DNA of 58,335 nt, the filler included, from Sphacelaria rigidula (taxonomy: Eukaryota): NCBI GenBank assembly GCA_964200075.2. It is 8 parts of 8 records of this genome, joined end to end, with 100 filler letters (N's around TTAATTAATTAA, not from the genome) between each part and the next. Parts side by side here need not be neighbours in the genome. Positions count along the whole stretch, not along the records: positions 36,526 to 43,729 come from CAXNAA020015980.1; 7 more parts are not named here. The stretch is one strand, 5' to 3'. Positions 7,206 through 54,100 of the stretch are shown piece after piece; positions within the stretch are counted from its first letter, which is position 1, and every line of letters begins with the position of its first letter. The notes under the pieces are model-generated. The model saw only the letters and a program-made list of their open reading frames with translations, made no database searches and was not told the DNA's origin. A program made the translations under genes and the position numbers.

Positions 7206-7686
7206 NNNNNNNNNNNNNNNNNNNNNNNNNNNNNNNNNNNNNNNNNNNNTTAATTAATTAANNNNNNNNNNNNNNNNNNNNNNNNNNNNNNNNNNNNNNN
7301 NNNNNGCTCCGTCCCGGCTTCGTAGGGATGCGAGGTCAATGGTGTTATGACTATGGCATGCATGATCATGAGAACATCCCTTCCTCGGGACGAGTCCATG
7401 GTGTCAAGGAATCAAGCCATCTACACCCGGTATACACCTTGCATTTTGGTGTTGCGGATTGGGTCAGCACTCCCAGACCGCGTCAACTGTCGTCAAACGA
7501 ACTCGATCAATGACTTCTTATCTACACACGAACTCGCGCTTTCGAAGGTGGAAATCAGATACAGCACCCCAAGTTTTTAGCAGGAAATTTCGTGAATTTT
7601 TTGTGACTGGCGATTTTCTGAGGTTCTTTTGCTTGCCGCCGCTCATCGCATTTGGGACCTGAAAATACCAGTATCGGCTCCGTATT

Positions 7687-14508: not shown

Positions 14509-14796
14509 CANNNNNNNNNNNNNNNNNNNNNNNNNNNNNNNNNNNNNNNNNNNNTTAATTAATTAANNNNNNNNNNNNNNNNNNNNNNNNNNNNNNNNNN
14601 NNNNNNNNNNGGATATCAAGGGCCTCAGTGGCCAGCTATTACAGAAAGCATGTTGGGCCTTGTGGAAGTGCATCTCGGAACTGAAACGATTCACTCTCTG
14701 ATTGACCGCTTTTCACTCTCAATTGCATCATCTACTCTCAATCTCACGAAAACACTTCTGTCGGGGATCTGAAGATATTTGTATCCGCTCCACATT

Positions 14797-17351: not shown

Positions 17352-20300
17352 TCATCCCCGCCGTAGCACGACCTTCATTCCACTGTCGGCTGCTGATCGC
17401 ACTGCATTAACAAATCCCGCGGTCCCGCCGCCACCGCCACCGCTGCCACCACCCTCCCTCGCATGAGACGACTCACCGTCTTGCGCAGTCACCAACGCGC
17501 CGGCACTACTGTTCGCAACGGCGCCCAGCGAACCAGGCCCAACGGCAGCCAAGTCACCCACCGTCCGGTTGTCCACCCCACCGTAACATGCACCTCCAAT
17601 GTTTCCAGCCGCATCGACATGCATCAACCTGGGGCTCGTTCTTTGACCGACAGCTGCGGCGGCATCGACCACCACGTCCATTGTGTCACGCAGACCAGGA
17701 CTATCCGCGACCGACGACTGGAAAAAGTTACCCGCTGCCGCCACCGCTCCAGTCACCGCGCCGCGACCTCCGCTCATCGTCATCATCATCGTCGTCGCCG
17801 CCGCCGTCCCTCCAACTCCAGAAACGACCGTTGCCGCTGCCGATGCCCCACCCGCCGTTGCAGCAAAGCTACCGGGACAAGCTGCTGCTGACGCACTGGC
17901 GGTAGACTCACTGGATGGGGACGACGCCGAAGCGGGACCATTTTTCGACACAACGACCGATGCCGGCGCCTCGTAGGTGGCGGTAGAACTCCGCGGGCGT
18001 CCGGGACCCGGCCTCGGGTGCTGCCCCGAAGACCCGTCTCGCGACGTCACCAGTTTTGTCGTGCCGTGTCCACCGCGATTGCGGCCACCGTTGGCGGAGG
18101 AGCTCACGGTCGAGGAGGCCGAAAGAGCGTTGGCAGCAGGCGGGGGCTTGAACGCAGCCAAGGCCGGTGGTGGCGCCACCGGCACCTGCTGCCCTCTCGA
18201 CTTGCAGCCTGCAGTTCTGCTGTTGACATTACTGCAACTACCGCTACCACCACTCCTCCAGGAAACGAACCCAACATCTGCGTACGGGCCCTTTGCTTTC
18301 CTCTTCTTAGAGTTTACATCGCTGCCAGAGCCGTCACACCCGTCGCTGCTGCTACCGCCGCCGCCGGCAAGTATACTGCGCCCACTCATGTCCAATCCGT
18401 ACCCCACCACTGCTCCTCCTGAACCAGCTCCTCCTCGACCTTCCACTCCAGAGGGGGCCGCGCGCTCCAGGCTTCTTCCGTCTGTGCCCCTACCAGGGCC
18501 TCCCCGACTATCACCTCCGGGACCAGCGCCGACGCGGCCTCTCGTGGAAATGTACGAACCGCCGAGTCTGAAATCGGCAGAGTATAGTGTCGCGTCGGGG
18601 CTCGATACGTGTGGATGGTGGGTAGCGGTGTACAGCGCAGCGGCGGCTTCAGCGGTGGTGACGGCGGCCCCGCGCCTGTAAGGACGGGGTGAGTGTGGTC
18701 CTCTGGAGAGGTACGTCACGCGCGGAGCAGCGGTGACGGCGGCTTGCCCTGGTTGACAGCCGTTGTTGGCGGTTGTAGGAGCAACGTGGTCGGCGACGGG
18801 CGGCGATTCTCTCCCCAACGGGAGTTCCCGGGTGCGCGAAGACTGCTCGTTCGTATCACCGAGTTTTCGCGTGCGCGAAGACTGCTCGTTCGTATCATCA
18901 AGTCTCCGCGTGCGCGTGGAATGAAGATTGTCTGCACCGTGAAAAACCCTGCCATTTCCGGCAACCTTCACGACGCGCAACGATCCCGCTCCGATCTCGG
19001 CAGTTGCGTCGACTCCGACTCCGGCACCGCTGCCGCCGCCGCCGTCGTTGCCGCCGCTGTCGACGACACCAGGTTCTGGCGGCGCCAGTGCCACGTCATT
19101 CGTCCCGTAAACGACACCAGAACTCGATGCACTACCGATCGCATACGGGCCTAGATGACCGTTACTGCTCAACCCCCCACCGCCCGCGCTACACGGCGCG
19201 CTCGAGGGTGGTGCATGGGGTAGTCCCCCTCCCCCGTCTGCAATCCCCATCCTCTCTAAGCTTGCGCCACCGCAGCCACCACCAACCAGAACTACCCGGA
19301 GATGTGCATCGTCATCGCCACTCCGCCTCGCGCTACTGCTGACAGCGGCAGCGGCATTTCCTCCCGACACCGCAGCAGCACTGCCCCCGCTCTCTCTTCG
19401 CACTCCACCGCCGCCGCACCCGTCCGATCGTTGATGGCCCATCAAACGCGGCGATCCCGAGCACAAGTGGTTGTCCCTGCTGGACGGCGGTAGCCAGCCC
19501 GCGACTCGGCCATTGTTGGTCGTCGGTAGCACCATGCTTACCGGAACGGGAGGAGTCGGAATCGTCATCCTCACTGCACCATCACCCGCACCTCCAATAG
19601 CATAACAAGCATGATAGTCGCCATCAGCCGTGAGTGCCTCCCTCGATCGTTCGTCCGCTTCGAGCGCAGCCTCTGCCGCCGCTTCGACATCGGCCACCGT
19701 CGCACGAAGAACCGGCCCCGCACCCACGTATTCCGGGTGCCGCCGAACAGCCGCCACGGTTCCTCCGGTCGCCATCTGCTGCTCACCACCTTCACGCGCC
19801 CCCCCCACTGCCCCGGGGTCCGGAGGCTGAGGTCCCTCAAGCGAGGCCTCTCGCCACCCAGTCGCACAGCGCGGGGACACCGAACCGCCGCCTGATTCGC
19901 CATCATTATCGTCGTCACCGCCACCAACACGATCATCGCCCCGACGACGATGGACAAGAGTAGATCCGACGCTGCCACCACTTGCATCCTCCACCGTCCG
20001 GAGCTCCAACTCACACACTTCATCGATGCCCGTACTGCTGCTACTGCCGCCGCCGCCGCCGACGTTACGATTGCCATCGCTCCCGCCATGGCCACCGGGG
20101 CCACCGATCATCTCGGAGGTCCGCGCGAGGTCGGGAGCACTACCAACACCCACGCCGCCGTAGAAGAGCGGGGGCGGTACGGAGACGAGACGGGATGTTA
20201 TGACCAACGCCGCCGCGGGGGTGGCCGCCGGCATGTCCCCCGGTCGCGACACGGTCTGCGGCGGCAACGTATGAGAAAAAACTCGCGGCGCAAAGCCGTT

Positions 20301-20531
20301 CATGCCATTCGCGGCCGAGGAGGCACCTGCTGGGGCGACGGGAGCCGGAGTGAGAGCGTGAACGGGGACGGCGATGGAGTCGACGACCAGGGCGGCCGGT
20401 CTGTCTTGATTGATCGTTGATGATGCCGTGGCCCCTGAGAGGCACGTCGCCGGCGGTGCAACCGTCTCTTTTGCCGGGATTTCCGACGGCGGTTTCGCCG
20501 GGGCGCGATTTCGCGGCTTAATTTTCAGGTT
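17352..20531 (-). CDS. Large terminal coding exon (~1059 aa) of a Gly/Ala/Ser-rich, probably disordered protein; upstream exons not identified
   Basis: The 983-aa ORF extends 76 codons upstream in frame to a pyrimidine-rich acceptor (...ttttgtccgcctag|AACCTG at 20531). It is GC-rich and uninterrupted to TGA at 17352, with a KKRKAK NLS-like patch and no recognisable domain. Confidence 0.8.
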   Translation of the reverse strand, partial: NLKIKPRNRAPAKPPSEIPAKETVAPPATCLSGATASSTINQDRPAALVVDSIAVPVHALTPAPVAPAGASSAANGMNGFAPRVFSHTLPPQTVSRPGDMPAATPAAALVITSRLVSVPPPLFYGGVGVGSAPDLARTSEMIGGPGGHGGSDGNRNVGGGGGSSSSTGIDEVCELELRTVEDASGGSVGSTLVHRRRGDDRVGGGDDDNDGESGGGSVSPRCATGWREASLEGPQPPDPGAVGGAREGGEQQMATGGTVAAVRRHPEYVGAGPVLRATVADVEAAAEAALEADERSREALTADGDYHACYAIGGAGDGAVRMTIPTPPVPVSMVLPTTNNGRVAGWLPPSSRDNHLCSGSPRLMGHQRSDGCGGGGVRRESGGSAAAVSGGNAAAAVSSSARRSGDDDAHLRVVLVGGGCGGASLERMGIADGGGGLPHAPPSSAPCSAGGGGLSSNGHLGPYAIGSASSSGVVYGTNDVALAPPEPGVVDSGGNDGGGGSGAGVGVDATAEIGAGSLRVVKVAGNGRVFHGADNLHSTRTRRLDDTNEQSSRTRKLGDTNEQSSRTRELPLGRESPPVADHVAPTTANNGCQPGQAAVTAAPRVTYLSRGPHSPRPYRRGAAVTTAEAAAALYTATHHPHVSSPDATLYSADFRLGGSYISTRGRVGAGPGGDSRGGPGRGTDGRSLERAAPSGVEGRGGAGSGGAVVGYGLDMSGRSILAGGGGSSSDGCDGSGSDVNSKKRKAKGPYADVGFVSWRSGGSGSCSNVNSRTAGCKSRGQQVPVAPPPALAAFKPPPAANALSASSTVSSSANGGRNRGGHGTTKLVTSRDGSSGQHPRPGPGRPRSSTATYEAPASVVVSKNGPASASSPSSESTASASAAACPGSFAATAGGASAAATVVSGVGGTAAATTMMMTMSGGRGAVTGAVAAAGNFFQSSVADSPGLRDTMDVVVDAAAAVGQRTSPRLMHVDAAGNIGGACYGGVDNRTVGDLAAVGPGSLGAVANSSAGALVTAQDGESSHAREGGGSGGGGGGTAGFVNAVRSAADSGMKVVLRRG
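18820..18916 (-). repeat. 39-bp in-frame tandem duplication (RTRxLxDTNEQSS x2) within the large exon
   Basis: gtgcgcgaagactgctcgttcgtatca occurs at 18832 and 18871. Confidence 0.9.
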
Positions 20532-23500
20532 CTAGGCGGACAAAATTGCAGGGGGGAACGACGTATAGTGTAGATATACGGGTGAGAGGTGAGGTCAAGA
20601 GGGGTAACTGATAGATGGATAACGTCCCAGTAAAGGTATCATTTATTACTTACTGACGAGGGGCGTAAGCGGTACAGCACCGGGGGGGGGCGACTCGCAG
20701 GAAGACATTATACTGTGAAAGGAGTGACATACCATTGGTCGACATTTCAAGCGGAGAAACCGGCTCGCAGCGTGAGACGTTACGCAGTACTTACTGACGA
20801 GGAGTGACAAAAATCACTCCCTTTGATTGTTGAGCCCAAGTCTGACTACGGGGAATCTTTAATGTTCTATCCGATTAATACGAAAAAATAAAAAAATGAA
20901 CAAGAAAAAATGGCGATTTATTTTTTTCTTTGGCGGAGGGGGGGGGGGAGGGGGGGGTACTTATTTGTTGCTTGCCATAGTCGTTTGACCATTGACCACG
21001 GCTCCCCTTCAGGACGGAGCACCCTTCCTACTCCTAATAGAGATACCTCCAACATTCTTGTGCTCATTATTACTTTTGTGGTGGAGAGTATCGAGACTCA
21101 TTTCACGATTGAAGCTCATTCTGCACTCTCGGCTGCTCTCAAGTGTGTAGAATTTAGTTGAAGCGGGTGTGGAAAAAATGATGAACAGACATCGAGAGCG
21201 CACCGACTGGCCGGTCGGCTACGTGACCCAAACAACACTGGAGATCGACTTCCGTGCCAGGACTCATCTTTCGCTTTTTATCAAATGTATTGAATAGCAA
21301 TCGTGTATTTTTGCTGCTCTTGATTTTTTTCATGTTCGACCATCATCTCCTTTTCCTCTGGGGCCGGCGGCGGTGGGTTTTCGGACCGCTGGATTATGAC
21401 TTCCTGGCCGGGCTGCAATTGCCTGGTCCATCATCTCCTGCTTTACAAACATATTTCCCTACTTGGTCACACAAAAAATGAAAAATTGCCTGACGACACG
21501 ATAAACAGTCCTCAATGTGCTCCATCTATGCAACTAGTATACTATGCTGTACTCTCTCCCTGTACAGTCAGTACAGCACAGTGTCCCATGATCGGGGTTG
21601 CCAACCGCACTATAGTGGGACCCCGCACTGTAGGGGGTCCCCCACTGTATTGTTGTTACTGTGGAGCACCAACTATCGTCATTGTCCATACCATGAGGGG
21701 GGTCCTCCACGGAACGAGGGGGGGGGGGGGGGGGGGTTACCGATGGTGGGGCTCGCACTGTTTTGACGTGCGTAGGGGGGGCCCCCGCCTTGTGGTGGTC
21801 CCCTCCTTTTTTTGTNNNNNNNNNNNNNNNNNNNNNNNNNNNNNNNNNNNNNNNNNNNNTTAATTAATTAANNNNNNNNNNNNNNNNNNNNNNNNNNNNN
21901 NNNNNNNNNNNNNNNTGAGCCGATAATCGAAACTGTCGCATTGAACAGAGACCAATCCCAAAATAGATTTTTTGTCTGAAGTGCCGTTCAAAGAGATACT
22001 CTACAGCGCCAGCGCACCGGAGACTGAAAAATGCTAGATAGGATGATCCAGAAAAGACGAGAACAAAAAAGGACAACCAGACGGTAACGAGGAGGGAAAA
22101 CAAGGAAGTATGACCTCCCTCGGGTTTCGGTCAAGTAGCATCGTCATGGAAGCACAACAGACACGGCATGTCTAGCCTACACACGGCATACCGCTACCAG
22201 CAAAAACAGAATCTGTTCATGTGTTCTTCCGGGGGGATTTCGAGGCTAGGGTGCCCCCGAAGGATGTGCAGGACAACTTCGGAGCGAAAACGGTCAAAAT
22301 GGAGTGTTAAGCTGTTTTCGCGTTTCCCACCATTTTTTGCCCCTTTAATAGGCAAAAAACAAGGTAATACCTTTTCTAGGCCATTGCCCTATTTCAATGG
22401 TTGCAATAGGCTTGTACTACACGCAGTACATTCTTGTTCACTGCAACTCTTGGCAATATGTATGGAGATTAGGGTGTGCACAATTTCGAAGGACAAACAC
22501 CGTTGTTCCCAGATGAGGGTGGTGTTTCCACAATAATATTATGGGATCGCGGATTGCGGAAAGAGAAACGTTTTTTCCACCTCATTTCTTCACTTGTTTA
22601 CCGCACAAACTTCGGGAGATGCGCACGCACAAACATGCATGAGACTGCACGCCCTCTCTCTCGTTTCCAGCACGCCTTCTTCCACAGTATCGAGACTAAA
22701 ATGCGCCGCATCTTCTGCTACTACTTTCAAATTAGATTCAGCAGCGTGCAAAAGTACACACTTTGTAAATTTCGGGGTCGCTAAATCCTATACGGGTGAG
22801 GTTCACGAACTTGGATACCCCTTGTGCTTTGCGCATCATGTCTCTGGAGGAAACGATGACACCCAGGTGCCCACACGTCAAGAGCCAGTCAACTTTTCAA
22901 TCTGGAACTTTTCCGTCGTTACATCGATACAAGAAGCGAAGATTTCAAGATCGATGCGATCTTTGGTAACGTGCTACACCCTGACGTCTCACTTGAAAGT
23001 TGTCACGAGTACAAGTCGACCAACCACAATCACCGGTCATGAATGATCGACCCTTGATGGCAGCGTCCAATTGCTTGATGCAAGCAGTAGTGCTGACTTA
23101 CGAGCAGGAATGCACATTTCTCAAGTTAGAATCGGTCGGGGACGTACTCCAGTTACTCTATGAAAGCATCAAATAGCAGGGGAGACGACGGCAAAACGTG
23201 CATGAAAAAAACTACGAGAATGACCAATGTTTTTTCGACATCCAGAACGAACTGTTTTCGCGCCGACCCAGATAAAGCATGTTCTCTATACGACCAACCG
23301 AATCAAAGTAGCTAGTAGACGGACCATTCCGCCTTTGGGAATGCAAAGAAACACAGTATTGTGCACCTGGATGACAGCATCAACTGGTAATCATGTTTCG
23401 GAACACATCAGGTGTACGCCCATCACCAACAATCCTGCAATATAAGCGCGATGTATGGATGATAAAGCACCAACCTAATTTTCTGCCGCACAGCAAAAGT

Positions 23501-28159: not shown

Positions 28160-31100
28160 CTGGAGCATGATCAGTTGGCGTAGTCAACAAGTGGGGGTGG
28201 AAATAACGGTTCAAGAGGAAAATAATACAGCGAGACATGGCCACCATGGAACGTGAAACGGCTGCAACGCAGAAAGCGAAACACAACCTCTACGACGCTT
28301 ACAGCATTCCGACCGTGCATCCATTTGTTCGACTGCTGAAATTGTCATAAAATCAAAATTGAAGGCTAAACTAATCCGAAGATTAGCTCCAAAAAGTAAT
28401 GATCGAGACAAGAGGGGAACGGGGAAATAGTGATGGACACCCTGCCGTCAAACTAGTACACGTGCGACGCACATGGACCCAAATTTTAGAACAGATTCAC
28501 ATCGAAACCTAGTCATCAAACATTGGGCTAGAGCCCAGCACCTCTCCTGGCTGCATTGAGAGCAGGTAGGTGATGAGCGTAGAGCTAAAACAAGAAAAAT
28601 GGGCAAGATCAGGACAAAATACCACGTACACAGGCACACAATCACAGCACACGATAGTCTACCGAGAGCCGTACTGCCTCTGGATATACGTAAACGCCCT
28701 AGTTGCTGTGAAAAATTCACAGCGCTGGCTTTTTTGCTCGCCGCGTCAGAGACATGAATAGGCTTCGCTAATAACCTTCCATCAATGACGTCACTTGGTT
28801 GTGCCCCGACTTGAAGCACATTTTTCTCAAGTTTACCATGCTCCACTGAGCTACAGCCTCAAAATTTCATCGATAAGAGCTGATGCACCAACACGCACTT
28901 CGGAAAGGTGTCATTCTTCAATGATTGATCAACAGTCGCACGTGAAAGGCCTTTTTTATACAGGTTATCAGTGGAATGTACATGGGTACATTTATGAAAG
29001 GGCATAAGGAGTATTAGTTTTATCCTCCATGGGAGCCCTAACTCCGAACGATTCACGGTTAGGACGAATCGTCACGACTACGAGTCACCAAATCCACGAT
29101 TTCTTCGGCCTGATTGCCCANNNNNNNNNNNNNNNNNNNNNNNNNNNNNNNNNNNNNNNNNNNNTTAATTAATTAANNNNNNNNNNNNNNNNNNNNNNNN
29201 NNNNNNNNNNNNNNNNNNNNCCCTCAGTGAACATACCACTAAACACCAAGCAGCCACCCAAAACGCTGACGCTGTTCCCACTCTTCATTCTCAGATGGCA
29301 TCTCTTCACGTGAGCCCTGATGCTATGAAAATCTTTCCTGGCGATAACCTCAGCACCCAAACCGGTGCTGAATCCTCTGATCGCCCCACTCTGGCTTTTG
29401 ATCCGTCGCCCACATTGGAACAATACCTGCCCACGAATGAAATACACGACCGGCTTCGGCAAAAGCGTCGACCTTCATTCCACCGCGCCATTGGTACAAC
29501 TTCTCAGAGGCTGAACAAACAGCTTGCTGGGATCAGATCCGCAGTAACGATCTAGTACACCACATGGGACTCGAGCACAGAGGGTTGGAATTTGCCCGCC
29601 TACAGGTATATACAAGGGTCCAGGATCCCGCTCAGGCCTCCCATAATGTAGATGTCCACCCCGAAAAAAAGCCAACAGAACAGAACGAACTAGAACGCGC
29701 GATACGCACATCCACAAAGGCTCTGGAAATTTCGGAACAAGAATATAAGCTGTTGACAAGAAGACACTTGGAAGCTTCGCATCATTTCGGACTATGTTGG
29801 CAAGTCTGGCAATCACAACTGCGTTCGTACGGTCGCCTGCTCCGCCCCCAAGGCGGCAACTGATTCACCGCCTGACCCACCTGACCTGGCACACTTTCAA
29901 CCACATGCACCGGCCCACTCACAAAACGGAAGACGTTTACACATGAGTGGACCTAGTGTCGCGGCTGAACCCCGCCAGGGCGGTACCCACACAGCACTGA
30001 TGCTCACGTCACAACTTGACAACCTTTCGAGAACGTTCTACAAGTTGCGGAGATTCCAAATAGCATACAGTGGGGTAACCCAGGACGTGTTGCTGAGCCC
30101 AAAAGCTGAGCCCCTCCACCTGCCTATGTATTTTTCTACTTCTGTAAGTCATTTCTCATTTAGTTGGTACAATCCCACAATTAGAAATATACAATGACCG
30201 GTAATTCACTCGAGAAGTACCCAACACTTTTACGTCAACATGTTTTTTTCGCTCGACCAGGTCACGCACATCGCACGCACGAATCAACGGCGGCCACCAC
30301 GGGTTCAACCATGTGGTGTGGGTTCCCTGGATATTCTGACACTGTCTTGAAGGGTTCCAAGACAGTGGAAGCCCGTGCACCGTTGCATGGCTATCAATTG
30401 AGCAATGACCAAACCCAACGCTTTAACCCTGGATTTGATCACTCAGTTTTACATTCATCAGGTACTAATCATATTCAATCGAATCCCCTCCCTTCAAAGG
30501 AGAGGAAGTTATGTGGTGCAGTTTCTTACGCATCAGGAGCCGAAACATCCTCTGGTACGATAGACACTGCTGCTCCGACCGTTCATCGGAGAACACAAAA
30601 TTCGAAGCATCACACTCAAGCACCCCCCAACTGCTCAAGTGCCCGGATAACCACCCTACCGAGTTTCGCAAAGACTACGGTACCCGGTTCCCTTTTATTT
30701 GATGAGCGTAATTATTCCTTGAAAGGTCGCAACCGCAAAGAACTCATGCTTTCCGTCGCTCAGCAGGTTGGAATAGAACCCCAAGTGACAGCGACTCAGG
30801 TGGTGCGCCAAGAGCGTGACCTAGGTTCGACTGTCCAAGAACTCATTTCAATAGCTCCTGGAGCCGCCGACCCTTTTGTGCCCTACACGCGTCACGCTTC
30901 GAGGGCTCCTTCAGATGATCATGTACATAACCCTGATGTAGCAGGCGCACGTGAACTCCAAGGAGGAGATTGCGTGTGGGCTCAGACAGATGAAAACCTT
31001 AGAGTGGAACAGGCCGGTACTTCCCAGATTTCGAACAGATCGTTACTGCTCCCTGATCACCCCGCGTGCACTACGTTAGAACCCATTTCCGATGAAGCGT

Positions 31101-34170: not shown

Positions 34171-35033
34171 CAGCTCAACCTATCGATGAATCCGCCATGG
34201 GACGTATCACCGATCTCACCGAAGACATTGTATATTTCATAAGCAGGAATGGACATAGAGGTCTCTACACACCACTTTCACTGTGAGAAACGCCGGCTTT
34301 AGGCATGGGTGGGCTAACGACCACAACCCACGCATCAGTTCTAGGCAGCTTGCAACCTCAATCGTTGTACTCAGTTTGGAATGGACTGTCTACGAATACT
34401 GTCGACTATGATCTTTTTCGTGCAATTGGCCAGCGCATGGTTTTCGCAGCAGGTGTAGAACCGTCCTTTGCTGACTCCGTCTTACCAGTTCAAGTTCGAG
34501 ATTTAATTTTGAGTAGGACCCGTGGACAGCGGACCGCCGAAACGGCCACCAAATTAGCCGTATCCGGTCCTGACCTTCCCCCCCCTGCCCCCACCCCGGT
34601 CCTGGATAGTTTCCTTGCGCCCCCGCAGCCTCCGCGACGCAAGGCTCCCGAAACATCGACCCCGACCGTGCCGCCCCTGCCAACCAGAGCCGAAACGACG
34701 GCTGTGCCGTCCTCCAGTGGTGATGATATTGCAAACACCACCACAACACCCTCCACGCTAATCGACACAGGAGTAGATGATAACGTTCCGTCTGAGAGTG
34801 CACCAACTGGTAGGCTCACCCTTGATTCCGAAATCACCGCTTCGTGCCAACTCCGCCCCGAACCGGCCCAACACAAAGTCGACGCTTCAACAGATGGTGT
34901 ATTCAAGGGACGTTTGACTCTCTTCTCCCACGCCGATTGGGCCCGGGAACAGCAGGCAGAACCTGCTTGTAAATCAGCTATCCAGTAATTATCTGAAGGT
35001 TGCCCATGTCCATTCTCAGAAACTGAATTCCTT

Positions 35034-36330
35034 TTGCCAGTCGGGAATCTCAAAGCGTCCACCCAGGATGAAGTTACTGAACTTTCAAGGAAAGGTATGC
35101 TACATACGGATGATGATGGTATAGTTCTGTTAGTTCGCCGGCCCACAGCAGCCCTCCCCAGGGGGAAGCCTACAAGTCGACATGCCCGCTTGCTAGGTTA
35201 TGAACCCATCCGCATCTATGTCCCGATGCTACTGCGCGCATGGGTTCTACACGAATGCCATTCACAGACATCGACTCACTTAGGCGCCATCAGGACCTCC
35301 CAGATGTTGGAACGTTTTTATTGGTGGATTTGTATGGATCAGTGTTGTCGTTGGTTGGTGAGGCGTTGTCTTTTGTGTCATGCGCGAAAAACTTCTCGTC
35401 AAACAGTTCGTTGGCCGATTGTTTCCATGCCATTCCCAAACGGGCCTGGTGAGGTAGTGTCGTGGGACTATTTTGGTCCTCTGCCCCTGACGGATAGTGG
35501 AAATAAGTATATCTTGTTGTTTACGGATAGATTTAGTCGACATGCGGTGATGCACGCTGTCCCCCCCAGTAGTTATACCGCGGAAGGTACCGCCAATATT
35601 CTTGTCTACATGTACATCACACAGTGGGGTGCGCCCAAACGCTTACTGTCTGACAACGGCCCGCATTTTGCAGGCAAACTTTCAGCCGCCGTCAGTGACC
35701 TTTTGGGTGCCCATCGCATTTTTATTAGTTCATATCACCCTTCCACCAATGGTGGATCGGAACGAGTGAACCATACGATGGCACAGATGCTTGCTGCTGT
35801 AGCAAAAGAGAGGCAGATGGACTGGGACCTGCACCTGCTCCTCGTCCAAATGAACTACAACAATTCAGTCAATGCCGCTACGGGATTGTCGCCGAACGAA
35901 ACTCATATTGGACGCATGCCTAGGTTACCTTTAACGGTATTCGAACGCAAAAGTAGAGGTGGACATCAGAGTCTAGATCGTGATGTTGTAGAGTATCATT
36001 CGTCGGTTAGAAATTGCCTTCGTCTTGCACATGAAGTGGTACGATAACAGAACCAAATCAATTTGGGGAAGGTGGTCAGGGCGAACTAAATGTTGGATGA
36101 TGTGGTATATAACCGCCCGGTGTGGAAGGTAGGCTAATGGTCATGGGTGTATAACGATGTGAAGACCATCAATCAAGGGGCTAGCGCGAAATCGTCATCT
36201 TTGGACAAAGTGTTGAAGGCGAAACTATCCCTGAATTGGACTGGTCCTTGGGAAATTTTAGCTGTTGGTCCAAGCGCTACTGCACCCGACAAGAGTCCGG
36301 TGGGAGCGAAACTTCTGTATATACATTTTG
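35034..36330 (+). pseudogene. Gypsy integrase with GPW/GPY-like C-terminal motif
   Basis: 337-aa ORF with HHCC and DDE motifs, plus downstream KLSLNWTGPWEI. Confidence 0.93.
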
Positions 36331-36809
36331 AGCAATGGACTAGAAAAGGCATACCTTCTCGTTTTTCGCCCAAGAAAGGTACGAAAAATGACTAGAAACG
36401 CGAAAACAGCCAAACACGCCATTTTNNNNNNNNNNNNNNNNNNNNNNNNNNNNNNNNNNNNNNNNNNNNTTAATTAATTAANNNNNNNNNNNNNNNNNNN
36501 NNNNNNNNNNNNNNNNNNNNNNNNNAAAAAATTTTTGGGCTTTTGCCAACATGTACAGCATGAAAGATCATGAATACCCCCCCCCCCCCCCCTCCCCCAC
36601 GTCAAGAGTGCAAAATTGCAAGCCTTCAAAGGGCGAATGTGTACCACAAAAAAAAAAACAAGAAAAATAGTCCATCGGTCGCCCCGGTCGAGCAAGACAA
36701 AACAAGCGAAAAATTATTGAAACAAAATTGTAGGCCCACAGTAATCGGCACGGGCAGTCAGTTAGTTCCAAGCATTCTCGTGCACTAATTCGCCGCGTAT
36801 AGATTATAC

Positions 36810-39800
36810 CTGGAAAGCTCGACGTCGAGGCTGGCTTTATCGGCCTTGACTTGGTTGTTGGCTTCCAGCGAGCGGATCATGTAGTCCTGAAACTGTCGCC
36901 GAGAGGAAACAACCTGCGGAGAGGCATCATACAGACACGCCAAAATTTTGGGGTAGAACCTACAAGGTGCCTCTGAAGTCTTGCGAAGGCACATGTGGTC
37001 AGCTTCGAAGGGCTGCTTCATGTCCAACACCTTGTGGCCTTCGTGGGCCGGACTTGAGAATGGAATTGCACATCGCGGATGTGACCTGAGCTGTGTCGAT
37101 CAAAACAGACGCGCCGTAACTGCGGAGTGCGGTCAGGATATTCCCGTTCCCCTACACGCGTGCATTTTCGTTACAGTCCGCAAATATTGTCTCTCAGCGA
37201 CAAATAATGAGCTTTTGGGTCATACTCTAGACAACATGTCTTGCACCCAGCATCTTCTCTGGCCCAGAATCTCGAATCAAGGTCATCTTTACGTTGCACT
37301 TATCTACAACGGGACGGAATCTAAACGACCCTGAGCTCGAGCACAACTCTCAAAAAGTAACATCCTCACCAGCTCTTGTAACTCCACAACATCTCGTGGC
37401 AAAAATTCGTCAACCAGTGGGTCATCAGAGACTAGCTGGGCAGCAGACTCTGCTGCACCAACCAGAGACTCTGGGGGTGTTGCGGAAGCAGGAGCATCCT
37501 CGAGACCGCCAGCCGTGGAGAAGCCCGCCGCTGCTCCAGCCCCGGCGATCTCTCCCGCAACGGCTCCCGCCACCCGGTTAGGTTCTTCGCTCCCCCACCT
37601 TGCCTCCCACCCAGGTCTCTGATTGCGAGCTGTGTCGGACATAAGTAGACCAAACAATCAGATTTTCAGAGATACGACGCGGCGACGATCTTCGCGTTAC
37701 TCTTAGGGTCCTTGCGGCGTACAGGAAGAGATAAAACCGAGTAGAAATTGCGTTAAGAACCACGTCAACCGTAGTGGTCGCCGCAGCACCGTAGACACCA
37801 GTACGGCAGACACGAGTCAAAATCATGTGCAGGACAAGCCACACGGTACCAGAAACAGCTATATTAAAAATGCTGCAAATACGGCATACTGTATGTCGAG
37901 GGACATTGAGCAGGGGGGAAATAGTATCTCGCCAAATACACCGTAAAAGACAGACGCAACTTGAAACAAGAAAGGCGAACCAAAGGTAAGTCATCGGCAG
38001 TCACGTACCTACATAAGCAGGGTGCGCGTCGCTGGGCACAGGCGCGGCTGATCCTTCGACCGTGACAGTCGTTGCTGCGGCAATCGAAACGCCAGCAACT
38101 CGCGACACCTCTTCCGCCCCCCACCTTGAGTCCCACCCCGGTCGACCGTTGCGCGCTGCCAAAACAAAAGGATAATCGGTAAAGCGCGCAAACGATGAGC
38201 GAGGGCATATGTACAACGGTATTGGTTCCACAAGAGATGAGGCGCCCACGGTAGCTTGTCGACCAAGTCGTTGCGGGTCGAGTTAGTCCGACAAGTAGAC
38301 AGGACGACACGCTTCGTATCATCCGCATCATCCGCATCGTTCCCGCTAGCATGCCGAAATACAGGCTGGTTCACGGTTTTGACCCAAAATTAACTCACCA
38401 ACAAACACCATGCGCAATACCTGCTGCCAAAAAATAGTCGCAGACATGGTATCATTTTGACCGGCATGAACAACAGAAGAGGGCGACTTAGCCGGATTAA
38501 CAACATTACAGCGGTGGCGCGAGGGGCAAAGGGAGCCTCGACCAATCCGTACCCTTCAAATTTTTCTGAAATTAAGCACGCAAATTCCGAACACAACTTT
38601 AACCCAATCTCGACATGTTTCAAATCGGAGTAACCGTCATCAGCTCGGAAATCTAACGGGAAAACCCCCCCGGTCAACATGGATTTTGAATAATGGTCCA
38701 ACATACAACAAAAGGTACACCCTCACATTTTTCGAACAGAAGAGGGTGATGTATTTTTCGGTCTGGGGCGCGGCGCTGCACGCGGGCTGAACACCTCGAG
38801 AACACGTTCCAGCGCCTCAGCCCCAAAGGCCAAGGTGTCTGGGCAGCATGCCCGATCATTTTCTTTTTCGTACGTGGTACTAGGCTTAAAAACGACGCGG
38901 AATTGGAGAGAGTGTTAGATTACCCTTTTTTGTCAACAACCAGGAGGGTACGCCCTACTCTGCTACAATCTCATCCCTTGCCCTTTGTTCACGCGTGTAC
39001 CCTTCATGTCTTTCCGAACCCTCCTTTTCCGTCCTCGGGCCAGACGCCTCATTATTTCAGGCCTGACGAAGAAGAGGTGGAAACAGAAAATACTGACGGC
39101 AACCATTTTTACAGCGGAAGGGCACAAAAGACTTCACCATCATGAGTCATGCGGGCACCAAAAATGTCACCCTGGTGTGGTCGGATTAGTTTTTTCCAGT
39201 GCGAATGACTCCCCAGGACCCCGGGACCCCCGATAACAGGCGAAATGATATGAAATAGAAACCACACCACTGCTCTTCAAACGTTTTGCATTCATCCACC
39301 GTGTATACGTGCAAATTTTCAAAGTCGAGCTCCAAGAATCGGCGTGAGGATTTGCGAATGAATTTCAGGACATGAGTATGAACCAGCCTTTGCGCTGACT
39401 GGAAGTTCGTACGCAACCGGCGCAAAAAATCTGTTTTCAACAATCAAGTCTACACCTCCCTGCCCCACGGATATGAGGGCGAGCCGCAGCACTTTTTTCT
39501 TCGATCGAGAAAATGGGGCGGTGAAATCGACTTGAGCGGATTTTTCTCGTCCTGATGCAGTTGGGTCCTGACGGACTTTCAAGCTTGCGATCGAAAAAAG
39601 ACAGTGAAATTCGTGAAACGGTACAAGGCCACTCGTGTACAGTACAGACAGTCTGTGCTGTCTGCACTGCTTGCAAGCAGTGTCCTGAGTGCGTGCGTGC
39701 GTGCTTGTTTCGTACAGGAGGATATAAAAGAGAAGCGGGCGACGTGCACAGCCCAGGACTATCGGTTCTCTCTGCTTACAATGCGACGTGAAAAAGACTT

Positions 39801-42800
39801 CAGCAACGTGCAGCTTTGTACAGCCTGCACTGTCCATGAGCGTGCACGCAACTCGGTCGCCCACCGTACCACAAAATTCCGTCGCCGATGCCTACCATGA
39901 GAGGAGATGCGCAAAATTCCGCCAACAAGAAATAAACAAAGCACACCCGACTACTGCGGTGTATCTATCCCTCGGCTCAACTCATGCTCTATGCTGCAGG
40001 GTTGCAGTGGTAGCTGAGAATGAGTTGGATGGAGTTTGCATGGTCTTATGAACAGGGCTTATTTGGCGTGGTGCTCCGTAAGATAGGAGTCAAGTGCCGC
40101 TTCGTGCCTTTCGGCCGCATGTTTTCGATCGGAAACGACAATTTTTCACCTCGAGCAATTCTTCTCCGCACGCCGCTAATGATAATTTTGAATTGAAGCC
40201 TTCTAGGAACATAAATGCGGTGGACCTGTCAGATCGGCAAAGAAATATCGACCGCACTTTTTCGATCGAAGAGGTTCCGAGGGCGTGTCTTTGCACAGAG
40301 GTTTTCGATCGAAATTGTGCGGTGGAAAACAAAAATCCCGATATGATAGGTCGTGATTTCAACCATCGTCGTTACTTTTGAAGGTGGTTGAAATCACGAC
40401 CCATCAGATCGGGGTTTTTGTTTTTCACCGCACTTTTTCGATCGAAAAAAGATGTGCTAAGACACGACCCAAGACACGCCCTGAGCGACCATGCCGAAAT
40501 GTACATGAAAGTAAAAATGTTCATCGCATTGCCTGGACAGCAAAATGCCACTCTCTAACGTCCATTTCATCATCTACAACTGTACATATCTTTCCGTCAT
40601 GTACCGGTGTAAGCAGGATGTACGTCACCAGCCGTAGGCGTGCTTGACACTGCTGCTGCCGTCGTTGTCGGCAGTCCTGACACTCGGGCACTTTCCTCCG
40701 CTCCCCACCGCGCGTCCCACCCAGGACGGTTGTGACGTGCTGCGGAAAATGGCAAGGCGTTCAAAAATGCTGAAATCTTTAATAACTGAACGCATTACAA
40801 ATCGTGAAGACGCCCGGCCAGGTGATACTGCAGCGGCCATAGCTACATTCTCTGTTTGCCTACCGGCGTAAGCAGGATGTACGTCGTTTGCTGCACTCGC
40901 GCTCTCCACCCCTATTGCTGCCGTCGTTGTCGGCAGTCCTGACACTCGGGCACTTTCCTCCGCTCCCCACCGCGCGTCCCATCCAGGTCTGTCGTGACGA
41001 GCTGCGGGAAATGGCAAGGCGTTCAAAAATGCTCAAGCCTTAGATAAATGAGTGCATTGCAAGACGCTTTACAGACGCCGCGGCTAGAAGACACTGCAGC
41101 GGCCATAGCTACATTCTCTGTTTGCCTACCGGCGTAAGCAGGATGTACGTCGTTTGCTGCACTCGCGCTCTCCACCCCTGTTGCTGCCGTCATCGGCAGT
41201 CCTGACACTCTGGCGCTTTCCTCCGCTCCCCACCGCGCGTCCCATCCAGGTCTGTCGTGACGGGCTGCGGGAAATGGCAAGGCGTTCGAAAATGCTCAAG
41301 CCTTAGATAAATGAGTGCATCGCAAGACGCTTTACAGATGCCGCGGCTAGAAGACACTGCAGCGGCCATAGCTACGGTCACTGTTTGCCTACCGGCGTAA
41401 GCAGGATGTAGGTCGCGTGCTGCACTCGCGCTCTCCACCCCTGCTGCCGCCGTCGTCGGCAGTCCTGACACTCTGGCGCTTTCCTCCGCTCCCCACCGCG
41501 CGTCCCATCCAGGTCTGTCGTGGCGAGCTGCAGCAAAAGTAATGATAAAGATAAGGTCTCGACAAACAGATGTATCCCACGATACACTGTACACACCGGC
41601 ACTGGATAAAACTGCGGAGGATACCACCACATACTGAATCGTGTCGTCGAGGATGCTTTGATGCTTTACACGACAACCACACACTCGTCTCGATCATGCC
41701 CTCCACAAATATCATAACACTTCGCCAATCATGCGTTGGCTTGTTTCTCGAAGGCACACCTGCGTAGGCCGGGTTTACGTCTCCTGCAGTCCCCGATGTC
41801 GGCAGTCCGGATACTCTGGAGCTCTCCTCTGATCCCCACCTTGTGTCCCATCCAGGTCGGCCCTGACGAGCTACAGCAGAACACATGGCAGAGCGAAGAT
41901 CACCATTGAGCGAAACTCATCAAGCTAAAGTACAAACAACGACTTTCAAGAAGATATCGTGTCGAGAGAGTGATGGCACGATAGTGACACACCGTGACCG
42001 GAGCTTCGCGGTACGGCCAGATAAGGGCTTTTGTTATCGACAAAAAATAAAGGTCCGAACTTTCGGGAATCTCCTAGCGGTCCGCAGGGTCTGTCATTAT
42101 ATAGATCTGGCGCTGCCTTAAATACCTCGTTAGATGGTGCTGATCTCGTCGTTTGCTTGCCTTTGCCGACAAAATAACAGACAGGGTTATGCTACCTGCC
42201 CGTGTATGGCGTTCATAACTGTGGTAAACATCTTTCTCGCGATTTCTCTGTGACACGGGGGGACAGTTGGATAGGCTAGGGTGTGATCGACCGGGTCTCT
42301 CGGGATGCTGCAGCAGCACTCATGAGTAAAAATACCGACTGTAGAAAGCCCCGTGCAAAGATGGCAGCATGCTTGCTGTCTGTCAGTTGTATGCGCAGAT
42401 ACACGCAAATAAACCACCAGATGAAGACTTTTCAGATGGTGCGGTAGGGTACACTCGTAGCAGTACGGCAGGCTACTGGATTGTTTCTGCTCTTCACTTC
42501 GAAAGTGCGTATGTCTGCAATCTGCAAACGACGACCACCGTGCTTGACCCCGACAGCTTCACCACCGCTGCCCGGGCACACATCGTTCAACGAGATAGAT
42601 ACCGCCATCCCGCGGTGCTTTGTACTCTACGACATAGCCCAGGGTGCCACTAGCAAGTTTCTGATCATTCTCGCATGCTTGCGAGCGCCGCGGCGTGCGC
42701 CGAGGGCAGCTCTGCGGAGGATTGCGCTGCGGTCCGAAATGTTCGGAGTTCTCCCAACGTGAAGGTTGGGAGGAAAAATTTAGCCGCTTCGTTTTCGGAG

Positions 42801-43191
42801 AACGCCAAGCGCGATGGGCGAAAACGCCTAAAATCTTGGAGATTTCCGAAAAAACTGTGTCGATAATCAAGGCCCTAAGAAGCATACAGGATAAAAAATT
42901 CGCCTGGGCCGTCCCGATGATCATCGGTGAAAATATATCAAGCGACCAAGATACACTCCGTATCTACTTCTTTCACCAAGAAGATATTGTCTTGTTCTCC
43001 CCAAACATCATCACGTACAACACTCCTCACGAAACCTAACTCACCAGCGTATGCAGGGTGAATGGTAACATCCGCATCCGCGGATGCCGCAGATTTCGTG
43101 GTACTGACAGCCGGCGTGAGCCCACCTCCGGAAACACGTTCTACCTCCTCCGTCCCCCACCTTGCCTCCCACCCAGGCCGTTCGGCGCGTG
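36810..43191 (-). CDS. Partial multi-exon gene for a tandem-repeat protein of unknown function; repeat exons 43191-43045, 41870-41760, 41527-41393, 41264-41130, 41001-40864, 40739-40605, 38155-38009, 37629-37370, then a probable helical exon ~36892/36886-36810
   Basis: Each exon has a pyrimidine-rich (c/t)ag acceptor and a gt donor. The seven upstream exons are phase 1-1 with lengths 147, 111, 135, 135, 138, 135 and 147 nt. All eight encode ARxxRPGW[DE]xRWGxEExxRVxG, and seven end in [H/N]PAY[ATV]. Divergent copies keep the motif through synonymous changes. Confidence 0.85.
40302..40448. repeat. Intronic hairpin (~64-bp arms, ~20-nt loop)
   Basis: ttttcgatcgaaattgtgcggtggaaaacaaaaatcccgat...gtcgtgatttcaacca pairs with tggttgaaatcacgac...atcggggtttttgtttttcaccgcactttttcgatcgaaaa. 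Confidence 0.85.
40605..41527 (-). repeat. Recent tandem duplication of an intron+exon unit (~259-266 bp, 4 exons)
   Basis: Intron sequence (gaaatggcaaggcgttc..aaatgct; ctgcagcggccatagctac..ctgtttgcctacc) is repeated along with the exons. Exon ends are spaced 259, 266 and 263 bp apart. Confidence 0.92.
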
Positions 43192-43407
43192 CTGCATTTG
43201 GGACGGCAAATGACGACGGTGTCACAGCTCAGGGCACGATGCATGGTTTTATGAAACATCCGATGTGATTCGTTCGCGAGCAGTGATGGAACTGAAAGAG
43301 AGCATTCGGTCGCGTTCGCTCTATTCTTCAATACCATCATCGCGTTGAGTTTGTCGCTTGAATCTATGCTCGCACATTTTTCATGTGAGCGTGTTCAACA
43401 CCTTGAC

Positions 43408-43615
43408 TGCGAGGGTAGGCCAACTGCTGAATGGGCATCACTATTCACTTGAAAAAAGTATGCGTGATCCAGATGGACTACCAGCATCGCGGTCTGAGGG
43501 TTAACCCTTAGACCGCTATGCGGGTAGTCCATATCGATCACGGATACTTTTTCCAAGTGAAAATAATAATGCCGATTCAGCCGGTGACCTACCCTCGCGG
43601 CCAAAGGGTTAACTT
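43408..43615. repeat. Imperfect ~200-bp palindrome centred on agggttaaccct; the same ~100-bp unit recurs at 46240-46530, 46810-46895, 47020-47150, 47770-47830
   Basis: The unit gccgattcagc..gtgacct.ccctcgcgg.c.aagggttaa is found in both orientations in two contigs. Confidence 0.75.
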
Positions 43616-43654
43616 GAGTTTCAAACCGTGGGCCAGAAAAACGACGCATGGAAA

Positions 43655-43655
<1 letters not shown>

Positions 43656-43695
<40 letters not shown>

Positions 43696-43729
43696 GATTA
43701 TGATTATGATTATGATTATGATTATGATT
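43656..43729. repeat. Compound microsatellite (ATT)n(ATGATT)n at contig end
   Basis: Directly visible. Confidence 0.95.
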
Positions 43730-43904
43730 NNNNNNNNNNNNNNNNNNNNNNNNNNNNNNNNNNNNNNNNNNNNTTAATTAATTAANNNNNNNNNNNNNNN
43801 NNNNNNNNNNNNNNNNNNNNNNNNNNNNNATGTCTGACACAGTTAAAAGCCTCTTTTTTCGTGCAACCAAATACCCCCCCCCTATCGTAGGAAGACTCGG
43901 TTAA

Positions 43905-51032: not shown

Positions 51033-51146
51033 NNNNNNNNNNNNNNNNNNNNNNNNNNNNNNNNNNNNNNNNNNNNTTAATTAATTAANNNNNNNNNNNN
51101 NNNNNNNNNNNNNNNNNNNNNNNNNNNNNNNNGGGGGGGGGGGGGT

Positions 51147-51194
<48 letters not shown>

Positions 51195-54100
51195 CATGGT
51201 CCTGTCGCGTTGTGCGTGGTTTTGTTCCGTGGGTACCCGTTGATGAGAGTAGACGGCGTCAACGCTTGTCGATCGCAACCCATGGTAGCACCGTGCGTGG
51301 AACACCTGCTCACGTTCTCGAATTCGATGAAAGACAGTGCATCATTCTTCTCGCCAAAGGGAAGGGTTCAAAGCGGAGTAAACGAGTCGTTCCCGTGACG
51401 GATCTTGTAGGCAATGGGCTATCCATGTTGCGTTGAAACCGACTTCTTGATTGAGGGAGGAAGCACAAACCCGCAGCTGATCGATACCAAGACACGAACG
51501 GTGCCCGTCTTAGTCATGCCTGACAAGCACCCCCACCCCCTCCACCCTGTCGGGCATGACCAGGACGCTGTTCCTTGCGCAAGACATGGGATCCATGCGC
51601 TGCCACCCTTTTCCTTGTGGTGTAGAGGAACAAGAATGCTCACCCGACTAACTTTTCTCGATTCTTCGACATACTGAACACGATGCGTTACTGGTTCACC
51701 TCCACAGGTTACTTCTTTCGAATGAGAGCTTGTGCTACGAACAGTTCGCAAGTGGGGTTGCCCACTTGAGCCTCAATTCAGAGTTGAACCTCAATTCGCA
51801 CAATTTGCTGTTTACTGTCTCAGTTGTCATGATTACCATGATCGCTGCTCAAGCACTGTGATGATCGATCTTCACAAGGCGGGGCATGAAGTGAAATTTT
51901 CTACTTCAACCGAACATGCAGCATATTCATCCATGTGCAGTACAGTATGCAGTGATTTGTACGTACTCGCTCACCATTTATCGCAGGGCAAAACGGTTTT
52001 CCAGCACAAGGGATGATCAGTTCAACGAAGAACAGCTCATCCTGAATGTCAGGGTGTCTTGTTCACAGCTTCAGGCGATGGTATTTCTCTTTCGAAATGG
52101 TAGTTTTGAGTCTCATTTCTGAGGTCACTTCGTTCCCTTCCATAGGAGTAAAAACCAGGGGGCCGGCTGTCATCGAGTCTGAAAGAACCGAGTTCAAGTC
52201 GGATGCAAAGATGCATGTTTATGTAACCGTTTTCGTACGGGCTCAAACATCCTCCCCCCTGACTGCGGCACATTGCCGGTTCCCGCAGTCAGCCCTCCGG
52301 GACTTTTCCAGCAGATTAGATGGGCCCATGGAGTTTCTAATGGCATACCAGTATACCATTAAGCACCGTCCAGGCAAAACCAACGGGAACGCTGATCTTC
52401 TTTCCCGCCTACCTCTGCCGCCTACGGCCGCAGATTCCAGCTCGGCTTGTCATTTAACGGAACCCGATGAGCCTGGAATTGACGCGATTCGACGTTTTTC
52501 AACGCCCATTTACGCCCTCGACCTTCAGTGCCCGGAAACCGGTATGCATATGGGAGGACCTCGCCCTTCACCATATGACGCCGTCTTGGGTGGGTTAAAG
52601 CCCACTACCTCCGATTTTGTCGATTTTCGCACTTTCGGTATCCGCGCGAAAACTCTTCGCGGAGACACCTCCAGTCACCCACCTTATCTCCGACACCACG
52701 CGCTCCCGGTCTGCCGCCCGCACCACACCGAGTGCCCCGCCGCCACCGACGACACCTGCAACCTCTATGAGCCACCCAGCACAAGCTCCACGGACCAACA
52801 CGCCAAGTTCCGCAAAAACTTCTGCACTGTGCGCCACGAGCCGCGGACAATCTTCGCCGCGCACTGATACAACCCCGCCGCCTAAAATGGCGGCGCGAAC
52901 ATCTCCTGCCCCCGAGAATGGAACTGACGATTCGTCTCCTGCTCCCGGGACAGATATTGACGTCGGCATTTCTGCCCCGTCGCCTATTCCCCCACCGCCT
53001 GCCCTACCATGTTTGGTCGGCTCGCCAGCGGAAGGTCAACTACGCGAGTTCCTCGCCAGCTACTCCCACCGCAATTGGGCTCGCAAACAAAACGCAGAAC
53101 CGCTGTGTCGCGCAGCCATCCGGTACTTACAACTTAACTGTCCAGTCTCTTTTCCGTCCACGCTTCTGGCCCTGGTTGGGACACTGTCACCACCACTTAT
53201 TTTTGACGTATACGAGCTCGTGCGTAAAGGCACCCTTTTTACTACGGATGAAGGTGTGCAACTACTTGTACGTCGGCCTACGCCTTTGACAGGCGCAATC
53301 GCCGCCTCAACTACGGGACGCACCGCACGACTACTCGATGACGAACCAACGCGCATATATGTGCCATTATTAATGCGCCCCTGGGTCATGAAAGGCTGCC
53401 ACACAGACTTGTCATGTCACCTTGGCGTCACCCGCACCCTCGCGCTCTTGGAACGCTTCTACTGGTAGGTTGGCATGGATATTTCAACCCGCTTCTGGAT
53501 TCGGCGATGCTTTAAATGCCACGCCTGAAAAACTTCACGACAGACAGTACGCTGGCCCGTGATCTCTGTGGGACTCCCCGACGAGCCCGGCCACCTTGTG
53601 TCCTTTGACTACTTCGGCCCTCTACCGACCACAGGTCGCGGCAACACGTATATCTTACTCTTCACTGACCGCTTTAGCCGCCACGCGTCCATGTACGCGG
53701 TAACCGCCGCAGATTTCACTGCCGCCGGAACGGCCGACATACTGGTCCACGATTTCATTAAGCACTATGGTTGTCCAATGCGACTCCTTTCAGACGATAG
53801 TCAGCAATTTTGCTCGGACCTCTCTGATGAGGTTTACAAGCTCCTGGGCATCCGCAAAATTGCCACGAGTGCCTACCACCCGAACGGTAACGGTGGTACC
53901 GAAAGCATTAATCACACCATGACCCAGATGCTCTCTATGGTTGTCAATGACCGCCAAAATGACTGGGACCTACATCTCTCGCACATCATGTTGTCCTACA
54001 ACAACTCGGTTAGTGCCGCCAAAGGTCTTTCTCCGGACGAACTCCATCTTGGACGTTCCCCTCGGCTACCTATCACCGTGTTTGAGCGACACACGTTTGA

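Follow-up and report, generated by a model that had tools for sequence, protein, structure and literature searches.

The window analysed here is a 58,335-base stretch of Sphacelaria rigidula DNA (assembly GCA_964200075.2) composed of eight segments of about 7.2 kb. One of these, the segment at 36526-43729 taken from source record CAXNAA020015980.1, holds the gene under study, a minus-strand gene with a tandem array of repeat exons. A scan of the whole window for the repeat motif returned matches in this segment only, all of them on the minus strand. Searching the window by tblastn with two full-length orthologues, P0001 and P0050, gave matches at 36809-43228 only, and therefore the gene is cut off by the segment limits at both ends.

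Nine exons can be followed within the segment, all on the minus strand. The first seven each carry one repeat and are in phase 1-1: E1 (43045..43191, 147 nt), which runs from (A)RAERPGWEARWG to IHPAYA; E2 (41760..41870), at 111 nt the shortest repeat, which ends in NPAYA; E3 (41393..41527, 135 nt), E4 (41130..41264, 135 nt) and E5 (40864..41001, 138 nt), which belong to a recent tandem array and of which E3 is 94% identical to E4; E6 (40605..40739, 135 nt), an older member of the array ending in HPAYT; and E7 (38009..38155, 147 nt), ending in HPAYV. The eighth exon, E8 (37370..37629, 260 nt, phase 1 to 0), combines the final RPGWEARWG motif with a Gly/Ala-rich stretch and the block DDPLVDEFLPRDVVELQEL, while E9 (36810..36913, 104 nt) is the start of what is predicted from orthologues to be the C-terminal coiled-coil part (VVSSRRQFQDYMIRSLEANNQ). 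Intron E6-E7 (38156..40604) is 2449 nt long and intron E1-E2 (41871..43044) 1174 nt.

The seven internal exons share one geometry. They begin with (A)RxxRPGW[DE]xRWGxEExxRV and end with [HN]PAY[ATV], and each is preceded by a YAG acceptor and followed by a GT donor (7/7). The codon split by the intron is always G|CN, that is, Ala, with the G at the exon end and CN at the exon start; from E1 to E8 its third position reads A, T, T, C, T, A, G and T. In all seven introns the length is not a multiple of three. Joined in silico, E1-E9 give 436 codons with no stops, and when all ordered donor/acceptor pairs were combined computationally, 28 of 28 translated to PAY[ATV]-A-R-x-x-RPGW. A preliminary description of this DNA, made from the sequence alone, had delimited the array at 37370 and 43191, limits that coincide exactly with where E8 ends and E1 begins. 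Its proposals that internal exons are phase 1-1 with lengths divisible by three, that they carry the two halves of a motif at their edges and that skipping or duplicating any of them would keep the frame and rebuild the motif are borne out by these data; the sole deviation is the end of E2, NPAYA instead of HPAYA. That the intron splits a single motif is also borne out by the relatives described below, in which the block is contiguous (HPAYxARxxRxGWxxRWGxEExxR).

We mapped contigs from four of the eight sequencing runs of one organism (X1, X2, X8 and X5) onto 36600-43650. The RNA nature of runs X1-X4 is only a guess from the run records, none of which is registered as RNA. The analysis covers 15 listed joints of 27, and contig data of this kind are unable to reveal rare isoforms. 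In X1, X2 and X8 the contigs have joints at which the skipped parts are bounded by CT..AC on the plus strand, that is, by GT..AG on the minus strand, exactly at the predicted exon boundaries. Four of these minus-strand joints, seen in the cDNA-like contigs, are 41870>43045 (E1-E2, skipping 1174 nt), 41527>41760 (E2-E3), 38155>40605 (E6-E7, skipping 2449 nt) and 37629>38009 (E7-E8); a fifth, also in cDNA-like contigs, is 36911>37368, which with the cut moved by +2 reads 36913>37370 (E8-E9). Within the recent array the joint 41264>41393 (E3-E4) is found in X1 and X2 and the joint 41001>41130 (E4-E5) in X8 only; the latter shows that the E5 acceptor at 41001 is used. The E6 acceptor at 40739 is joined to a donor of the E4/E5 type, a joint to which we return below.

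Word depth at the splice joints is about 390-1750, against about 3-13 for intronic contigs of X1, X2 and X8. In the DNA-like run X5 the depth is 0 at every splice joint, while its coverage is even, at about 10.8, over unique sequence. Joints at the predicted sites together with their absence from X5 indicate that X1, X2 and X8 contain cDNA and that transcripts of the gene are spliced at the predicted sites. The seven exact adjacent joints thus turn splice sites that had only been predicted into used ones. The gene is strongly transcribed, with high exon word depth in the cDNA-like runs, although such depth is a poor measure of expression. The contigs also extend beyond the exons at hand: in X1, X2 and X8 there are loose ends at 43192 and at 36810. 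By hand translation of the 30-letter consensus, the former leads to a further exon upstream, outside the segment, which ends in LHPAYV plus G, and the latter to a further exon downstream, also outside the segment, which begins with LKAKLAAKE.

Origin of the exon array

Tandem Repeats Finder reports a minus-strand array of exon-plus-intron units at 40650..41531, with a period of 263 bp, 3.4 copies and 91% matches. Pairwise identity among E3, E4 and E5 is 92-94%, and the introns between them (I3-4 versus I4-5) are 95% identical, values that neutral duplication of recent date would be expected to leave. That the introns are as alike as the exons points to duplication, or conversion, of whole exon-plus-intron units not long ago. 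Divergence increases outward from this core: the E6 exon is 81-83% identical to the E3-E5 exons, and 79-84% when its intron is included, and E1, E2 and E7 reach only 55-67%. Across the eight copies of the block, the invariant residues R1, R4, P5, G6, R10, G12, E14, E15, R18, V19 and G21 are each written with two to four synonymous codons. Invariant residues with varied codons show that the block is constrained at the protein level.

The uniform 1-1 phase and the restored junctions go beyond chance, but they are the expected outcome of duplication, not seven independent events. Each repeat corresponds to one exon in this species, and a phase-1 intron interrupts the Ala codon that links HPAYx to AR. 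In the mechanism we propose, the array would have grown by tandem duplication of the exon-plus-intron unit through unequal recombination. Each new copy would inherit the position and phase of the intron, and only copies with a multiple of three nucleotides would persist; frame-neutral, motif-restoring junctions would then be a by-product of the duplication history. On this model the gain and loss of exon units would adjust repeat number, and hence valency, in the course of evolution, while the mature mRNA, as far as seen, would be one constitutive chain from E1 to E9. The block itself is probably a short, partly helical, putative binding site repeated along a flexible chain, to which terminal coiled coils may add oligomerisation. 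Because three of the exon-plus-intron units are recent tandem copies, it is credible that copy number varies between lineages and probably also among alleles. Taken as a whole, we consider it likely that the central part of a highly transcribed nuclear repeat gene on the minus strand lies in this segment, that its array has grown by duplication of exon units and that it is constitutively spliced.

Both long introns contain repeat DNA. Intron E6-E7 is filled with it, in high copy, at 38724-40611, where the word depth of X5 rises to as much as 54,016 as compared with about 10.8 in the flanks. Within the same intron TTTCGATCGAAA cores recur, 40281-40469 forms an inverted repeat whose arms are 90 nt long, and at 40006 nearly all contigs of all four runs carry G in place of A. 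In intron E1-E2 the X5 depth is 2964-4222 across 42028-42735. A joint at 42162-42474 in this intron skips 311 nt with non-splice ends (TT..GC) and is seen in X1 and X8 as well as in the DNA run X5; it probably reflects a variant of the repeat element or an indel, not splicing. Upstream of E1, at 43397-43610, there is a nested palindrome resembling a miniature inverted-repeat transposable element, in which gapless 59-nt arms (88% complementary) sit inside 49-nt arms (80%). Its word depth is 28,241 in the DNA run and about 700-1100 in the cDNA-like runs, and a joint between opposite strands was recorded there at 43452/43581. A TTA/TTATGA microsatellite (43656-43729) extends to the segment end.

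The remainder of the window is built of the other segments, adjoining ones not necessarily being contiguous. The spacers between segments have the form N44-TTAATTAATTAA-N44, where TTAATTAATTAA is a 12-mer, recur with a period of 7,305 bases and lie at 7206-7305, 14511-14610, 21816-21915, 29121-29220, 36426-36525, 43730-43829 and 51033-51132. Open reading frames (ORFs) with H2C2 integrase zinc-binding and rve core domains at 34989-36047 (+) and 52599-53468 (+) are retrotransposon remnants in other segments. The window is richest in GC (0.647 at 18001-20000) around a 1059-codon open frame at 17352-20531 (-); the frame has no Pfam match at E<=0.001.

Protein family and architecture

A Pfam search with three of the window exons returned no families at E<=1. 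Searched against 1.84 billion representative sequences, a profile of the eight repeats retrieved 45 proteins at E<=1e-3, ten of them at <=1e-10 and four at <=1e-30. The Ectocarpus siliculosus 'expressed unknown protein' group (P0048, P0001, P0047 and P0050) was retrieved at E values of 7.7e-49 to 7.8e-32. The relatives that carry a species name come from six Ectocarpus species or strains (annotated 'unnamed' or 'expressed unknown'), Ectocarpus fasciculatus, Scytosiphon promiscuus and Hapterophycus canaliculatus; the remaining ones are from Joint Genome Institute (JGI) metagenomes or without a name. A word-limited search gave no named kelp or fucoid matches.

The likeness to the Ectocarpus proteins continues beyond the repeats. 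E8 is 58-59% identical to P0047, P0001 and P0055 over 100% of its length, the highest identity obtained for it, which indicates that the source species, a brown alga or near relative, is not itself represented in the database searched; E9 is 55-57% identical to P0001 and P0050; by tblastn, residues 437-519 of P0001 fall on E8 and residues 519-553 on E9. The match in E8 includes the post-repeat block of the orthologues, GAxAGxxAxAGAAAGFxTAGGL...DDPLxDxFLPxDVxELxxMVVSxRRxFQDYxxxSL. The window gene has eight RWG blocks spaced 37-49 residues apart, in keeping with the tandem blocks of the orthologue group, which are about 40-60 residues apart. Judged by these sequence matches, the window gene is orthologous to the one for the Ectocarpus siliculosus 'expressed unknown protein'.

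The number of blocks differs between these proteins. There are six RWG motifs in five of the six models from the genus Ectocarpus, one of which is partial, seven in E. fasciculatus, seven in Scytosiphon, and eight in the window, where more may lie upstream. By these counts of predicted proteins, valency varies across evolutionary time.

The intron position also seems to be shared. In 22 of 60 retrieved proteins HP[AGS]YxG is followed by unrelated residues, and such read-through would mean that the same phase-1 intron position, with a G|GT donor, is widespread in the family; read-through ORFs thus suggest a common intron position in the relatives. P0001 (Ectocarpus sp. 6) and P0049 (Ectocarpus sp. 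12) each have two repeats in which HPAYAGK is followed by a short insert (KPEGGG, KPGGG or KL), at places where other Ectocarpus models carry HPAYAARTQ. These inserts look like annotation errors in which the donor of the phase-1 intron was mis-called. The JGI relatives may lack introns, an idea suggested by their single-ORF calls of 520-574 amino acids.

Searches for known domains and structures among the relatives gave little. Pfam on nine relatives produced only sub-threshold coiled-coil noise, except in P0045, in which DUF6554 scored above the cut-off and which is a doubtful member of the family. A sequence search of the Protein Data Bank (PDB) with P0001 gave no relative; its one match, an antibody chain at E 0.12, was rejected. 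We also discarded a metagenome locus (L001, 3001-3048) found as the single match of a scan with P0052: it is a bacterial ORF, in a stretch which we take to be a GGDEF-type domain, and its EDWSGRWGGEEF resembles the RWGxEE core by chance. Chance matches like EDWSGRWGGEEF are a trap in motif-based searches. A literature search turned up no paper that deals with this family or with a linker of brown algae; supplementary tables (Zambounis et al. S2 and the FLIPPer outputs) lay outside that search.

In the orthologues a hydrophobic N-terminus with G-F-T-x-P, a putative signal peptide, comes first; then follow a helix about 50 residues long, the repeats, a stretch rich in Gly and Ala, DDPLxDxFLPxDVxEL and two long helices. 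The G-F-T-x-P after the hydrophobic N-terminus resembles what we take to be the heterokont plastid-targeting cleavage motif, and so the protein probably goes to the plastid. The orthologue core has from six to at least eight repeats about 37-59 residues apart, and in each of them some 26 residues form a conserved block, HPAYxARxxRPGW[DE]xRWGxEExxR. An AlphaFold model of P0001, built on a 16-sequence alignment, has a mean pLDDT of 52.9, with 371 of 655 residues below 50; such low values, measured here on this one orthologue, signal disorder indirectly. The model contains helices at 76-126, 509-578 and 583-654, with 10-residue block means mostly of 83-92 and lower at the helix ends. At each block it places short helices at PSYAAR, WEARW and EEPAR; the block means there are 77 and 69 for the first motif and fall for those that follow. 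The repeat core is thus predicted to be disordered, with coiled coils at both ends, in the orthologues.

The repeat region encoded in the window is rich in Ala (21.9%), Gly (11%) and Ser (9.4%). Its pI is 5.36, and those of the repeat regions of brown-alga orthologues are 5.5-6.05; whole brown-alga orthologue proteins have pI 5.1-5.9, and more distant relatives 7.9-10. A low-complexity chain that carries short blocks, conserved and by the model partly helical, has the design of a multivalent binder.

Rubisco tethering and exon skipping as alternatives

The family could be a Rubisco linker or tether of ochrophytes or brown algae, in which HPAY..RPGWxxRWG stickers would sit on a disordered chain that coiled coils anchor or oligomerise. 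We regard this as unlikely, and a pyrenoid or Rubisco 'sticker' role of the blocks is an assumption and speculative. Features of the family that agree with it are the short predicted helices at each block, the Trp- and Arg-rich composition of the block, the presumed plastid-type presequence of the orthologues and the high exon word depth in the cDNA-like runs. The named relatives, too, are all Ectocarpales, an order with pyrenoids.

In the published work, a sticker-spacer criterion by which linkers have been sought (PMC11570498) describes disordered proteins with structured repeats 20-120 residues apart, and the spacing here is 37-49. A coiled-coil protein with several Rubisco-binding motifs, RSLD1 of Ulva, is described in a preprint (bioRxiv 10.64898/2026.07.16.738900). 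Among lineages with stalked pyrenoids, which include the brown algae, only a chlorarachniophyte is characterised molecularly according to a 2026 review (PMC13655443). The stickers of PYCO1 that this review gives, KWSPRGGS and GTGYNP, are however without sequence likeness to the block. The literature searched contained no localisation, proteomic or binding support for the reading. The charge also argues against it: the repeat region is acidic, as are those of the orthologues, whereas the Ulva linker screen used pI>8. Set beside a FLIPPer-type screen item by item, which looks for at least three repeats 20-120 residues apart, the window has eight blocks 37-49 apart; where it looks for a mostly disordered chain with repeated structured elements, this is what the model of a single orthologue, P0001, predicts; and where it looks for pI >8, the repeat region has 5.36.

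A more elaborate version would make the family an acidic, coiled-coil-anchored tether of stalked ochrophyte pyrenoids that binds form ID Rubisco, with valency set by exon units, fast change through unequal recombination and possibly skipping; we give this little chance. If the partner were nonetheless Rubisco or another plastid assembly, exon modularity would provide a natural valency series of 6, 7 and at least 8 repeats, which would serve to test how valency sets the properties of the assembly.

As improbable, in our view, is a regulated skipping of phase 1-1 exons, or their mutually exclusive use, that would tune valency with CO2, light or life stage. The preliminary description had linked the regeneration of the motif upon any skip to tunable valency. 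What stands of this is that repeat number differs between species (6, 7, 7 and at least 8); an isoform with altered repeat number was not seen in the RNA-derived contigs, which lose rare variants. From the exon structure it is possible that valency is tuned by splicing: all 28 joins are in frame and restore the block, and several splice variants are reported for brown-alga ROCO genes with one leucine-rich repeat (LRR) per exon (PMC11378527). However, the motif is regenerated by any skip because one exon-plus-intron unit was duplicated, and this by itself is no sign of design: duplication alone suffices for frame-neutral exons. Outside animals, moreover, intron retention and not exon skipping is believed to be prevalent, according to PMC6142364.

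The contigs contain a single candidate for a skip. Among the 15 joints, the only formally non-adjacent one is 40739>41130 (E4 to E6), found in X2 and X8, which taken literally omits E5. On its shorter side the joint spans only 29 nt, and E4 does not differ from E5 over the last 50 nt; because of these identical 3' ends the joint is ambiguous and could equally be an E5-E6 junction, so that it looks like constitutive E5-E6 splicing. The E3 donor is not joined to any non-adjacent acceptor, such as that of E5 or E6, in any of the 15 joints, and none of them skips E2, E6 or E7, with the qualification that they come from contigs, in which rare variants are dropped.

Several points count against the account we prefer, that of an array grown by duplication and constitutively spliced. 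The cDNA nature of X1, X2 and X8 is itself read from their spliced contigs. The adjacent E5>E6 joint, 40739>40864, is absent from the joints listed, and its existence is deduced from the ambiguous 40739>41130. Constitutive status is not proven, the contigs being blind to minor isoforms and 15 of the 27 joints being listed. On the protein side, targeting and coiled coils are taken from orthologues that are 50-60% identical, the ends of the gene lying outside the window, and the role of the block as a binding site is putative. That the array is an artefact, with E3-E5 an assembly duplication or the gene a decaying pseudogene, is very improbable: the X5 DNA contigs do break inside the array, where word depth is uneven (5.6-26.6), but E3, E4 and E5 have distinct acceptor starts (CTCGCC, CCCGTC and CTCGTC), each spliced in cDNA-like contigs (41527, 41264 and 41001), the spliced frame is open throughout and the motif is constrained at the protein level.

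Comparison with known repeat-exon genes and linkers

The closest precedents for the exon array are brown-algal. In the Ectocarpus ROCO-LRR genes and the NB-ARC genes with tetratricopeptide repeats (TPR), one repeat per exon, in-phase introns and local exon duplication have been described, as Zambounis et al. (2012, PMC3341825) document; this is the precedent that the preliminary description had named. Teng et al. (2024, PMC11378527) report that ROCO genes from four brown algae give splice variants which differ in their sets of LRRs. Like these genes, the window gene is brown-algal, with a separate exon of a multiple of three nucleotides for each repeat, a single intron phase, tandem duplications and a variable number of repeats.

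There are also differences. The LRR exons of ROCO genes are uniform, 72 bp long and in phase 2 according to PMC11378527, whereas those of the window are 111-147 nt long and in phase 1. The ROCO and NB-ARC-TPR repeats form solenoids, while the window repeat consists of a conserved block and a low-complexity spacer that is predicted to be mostly disordered, and the probable compartment of the window protein differs as well. Shuffled order, antisense exons and splice variants were not seen in the window gene. The screen of Zambounis et al. demanded neighbouring exons of identical length (PMC3341825), and most of the window exons would fail it.

With the pyrenoid proteins EPYC1, CsLinker, PYCO1, SUPA1 and RSLD1 the family would have in common a multivalent build in which stickers alternate with disordered spacers some tens of residues long, the presence of short helical motifs, and targeting to the chloroplast; with RSLD1 it would share a coiled coil as well. 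It differs from them in that there is no sequence similarity, in that the family is acidic while the linkers are basic, and in the long coiled coils predicted at both of its ends.

Animal genes with symmetric repeat exons, such as those for fibronectin type III repeats, titin PEVK, tropoelastin and collagen, likewise originated by exon duplication, and in several of them skipping changes the number of modules. Regulated skipping is thus documented for the animal arrays, whereas in the lineage of the window gene exon skipping is thought to be uncommon (PMC6142364).

Measured against these systems, the exon architecture is textbook duplication of a kind already described for brown-alga LRR and TPR genes. 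What is new is a non-LRR, non-TPR case, which would be one of few others, in a lineage where such cases are said to be nearly absent. The main product is the gene family itself: strongly transcribed ochrophyte repeat proteins with no Pfam or PDB match, the repeat number of which shifts between close species.

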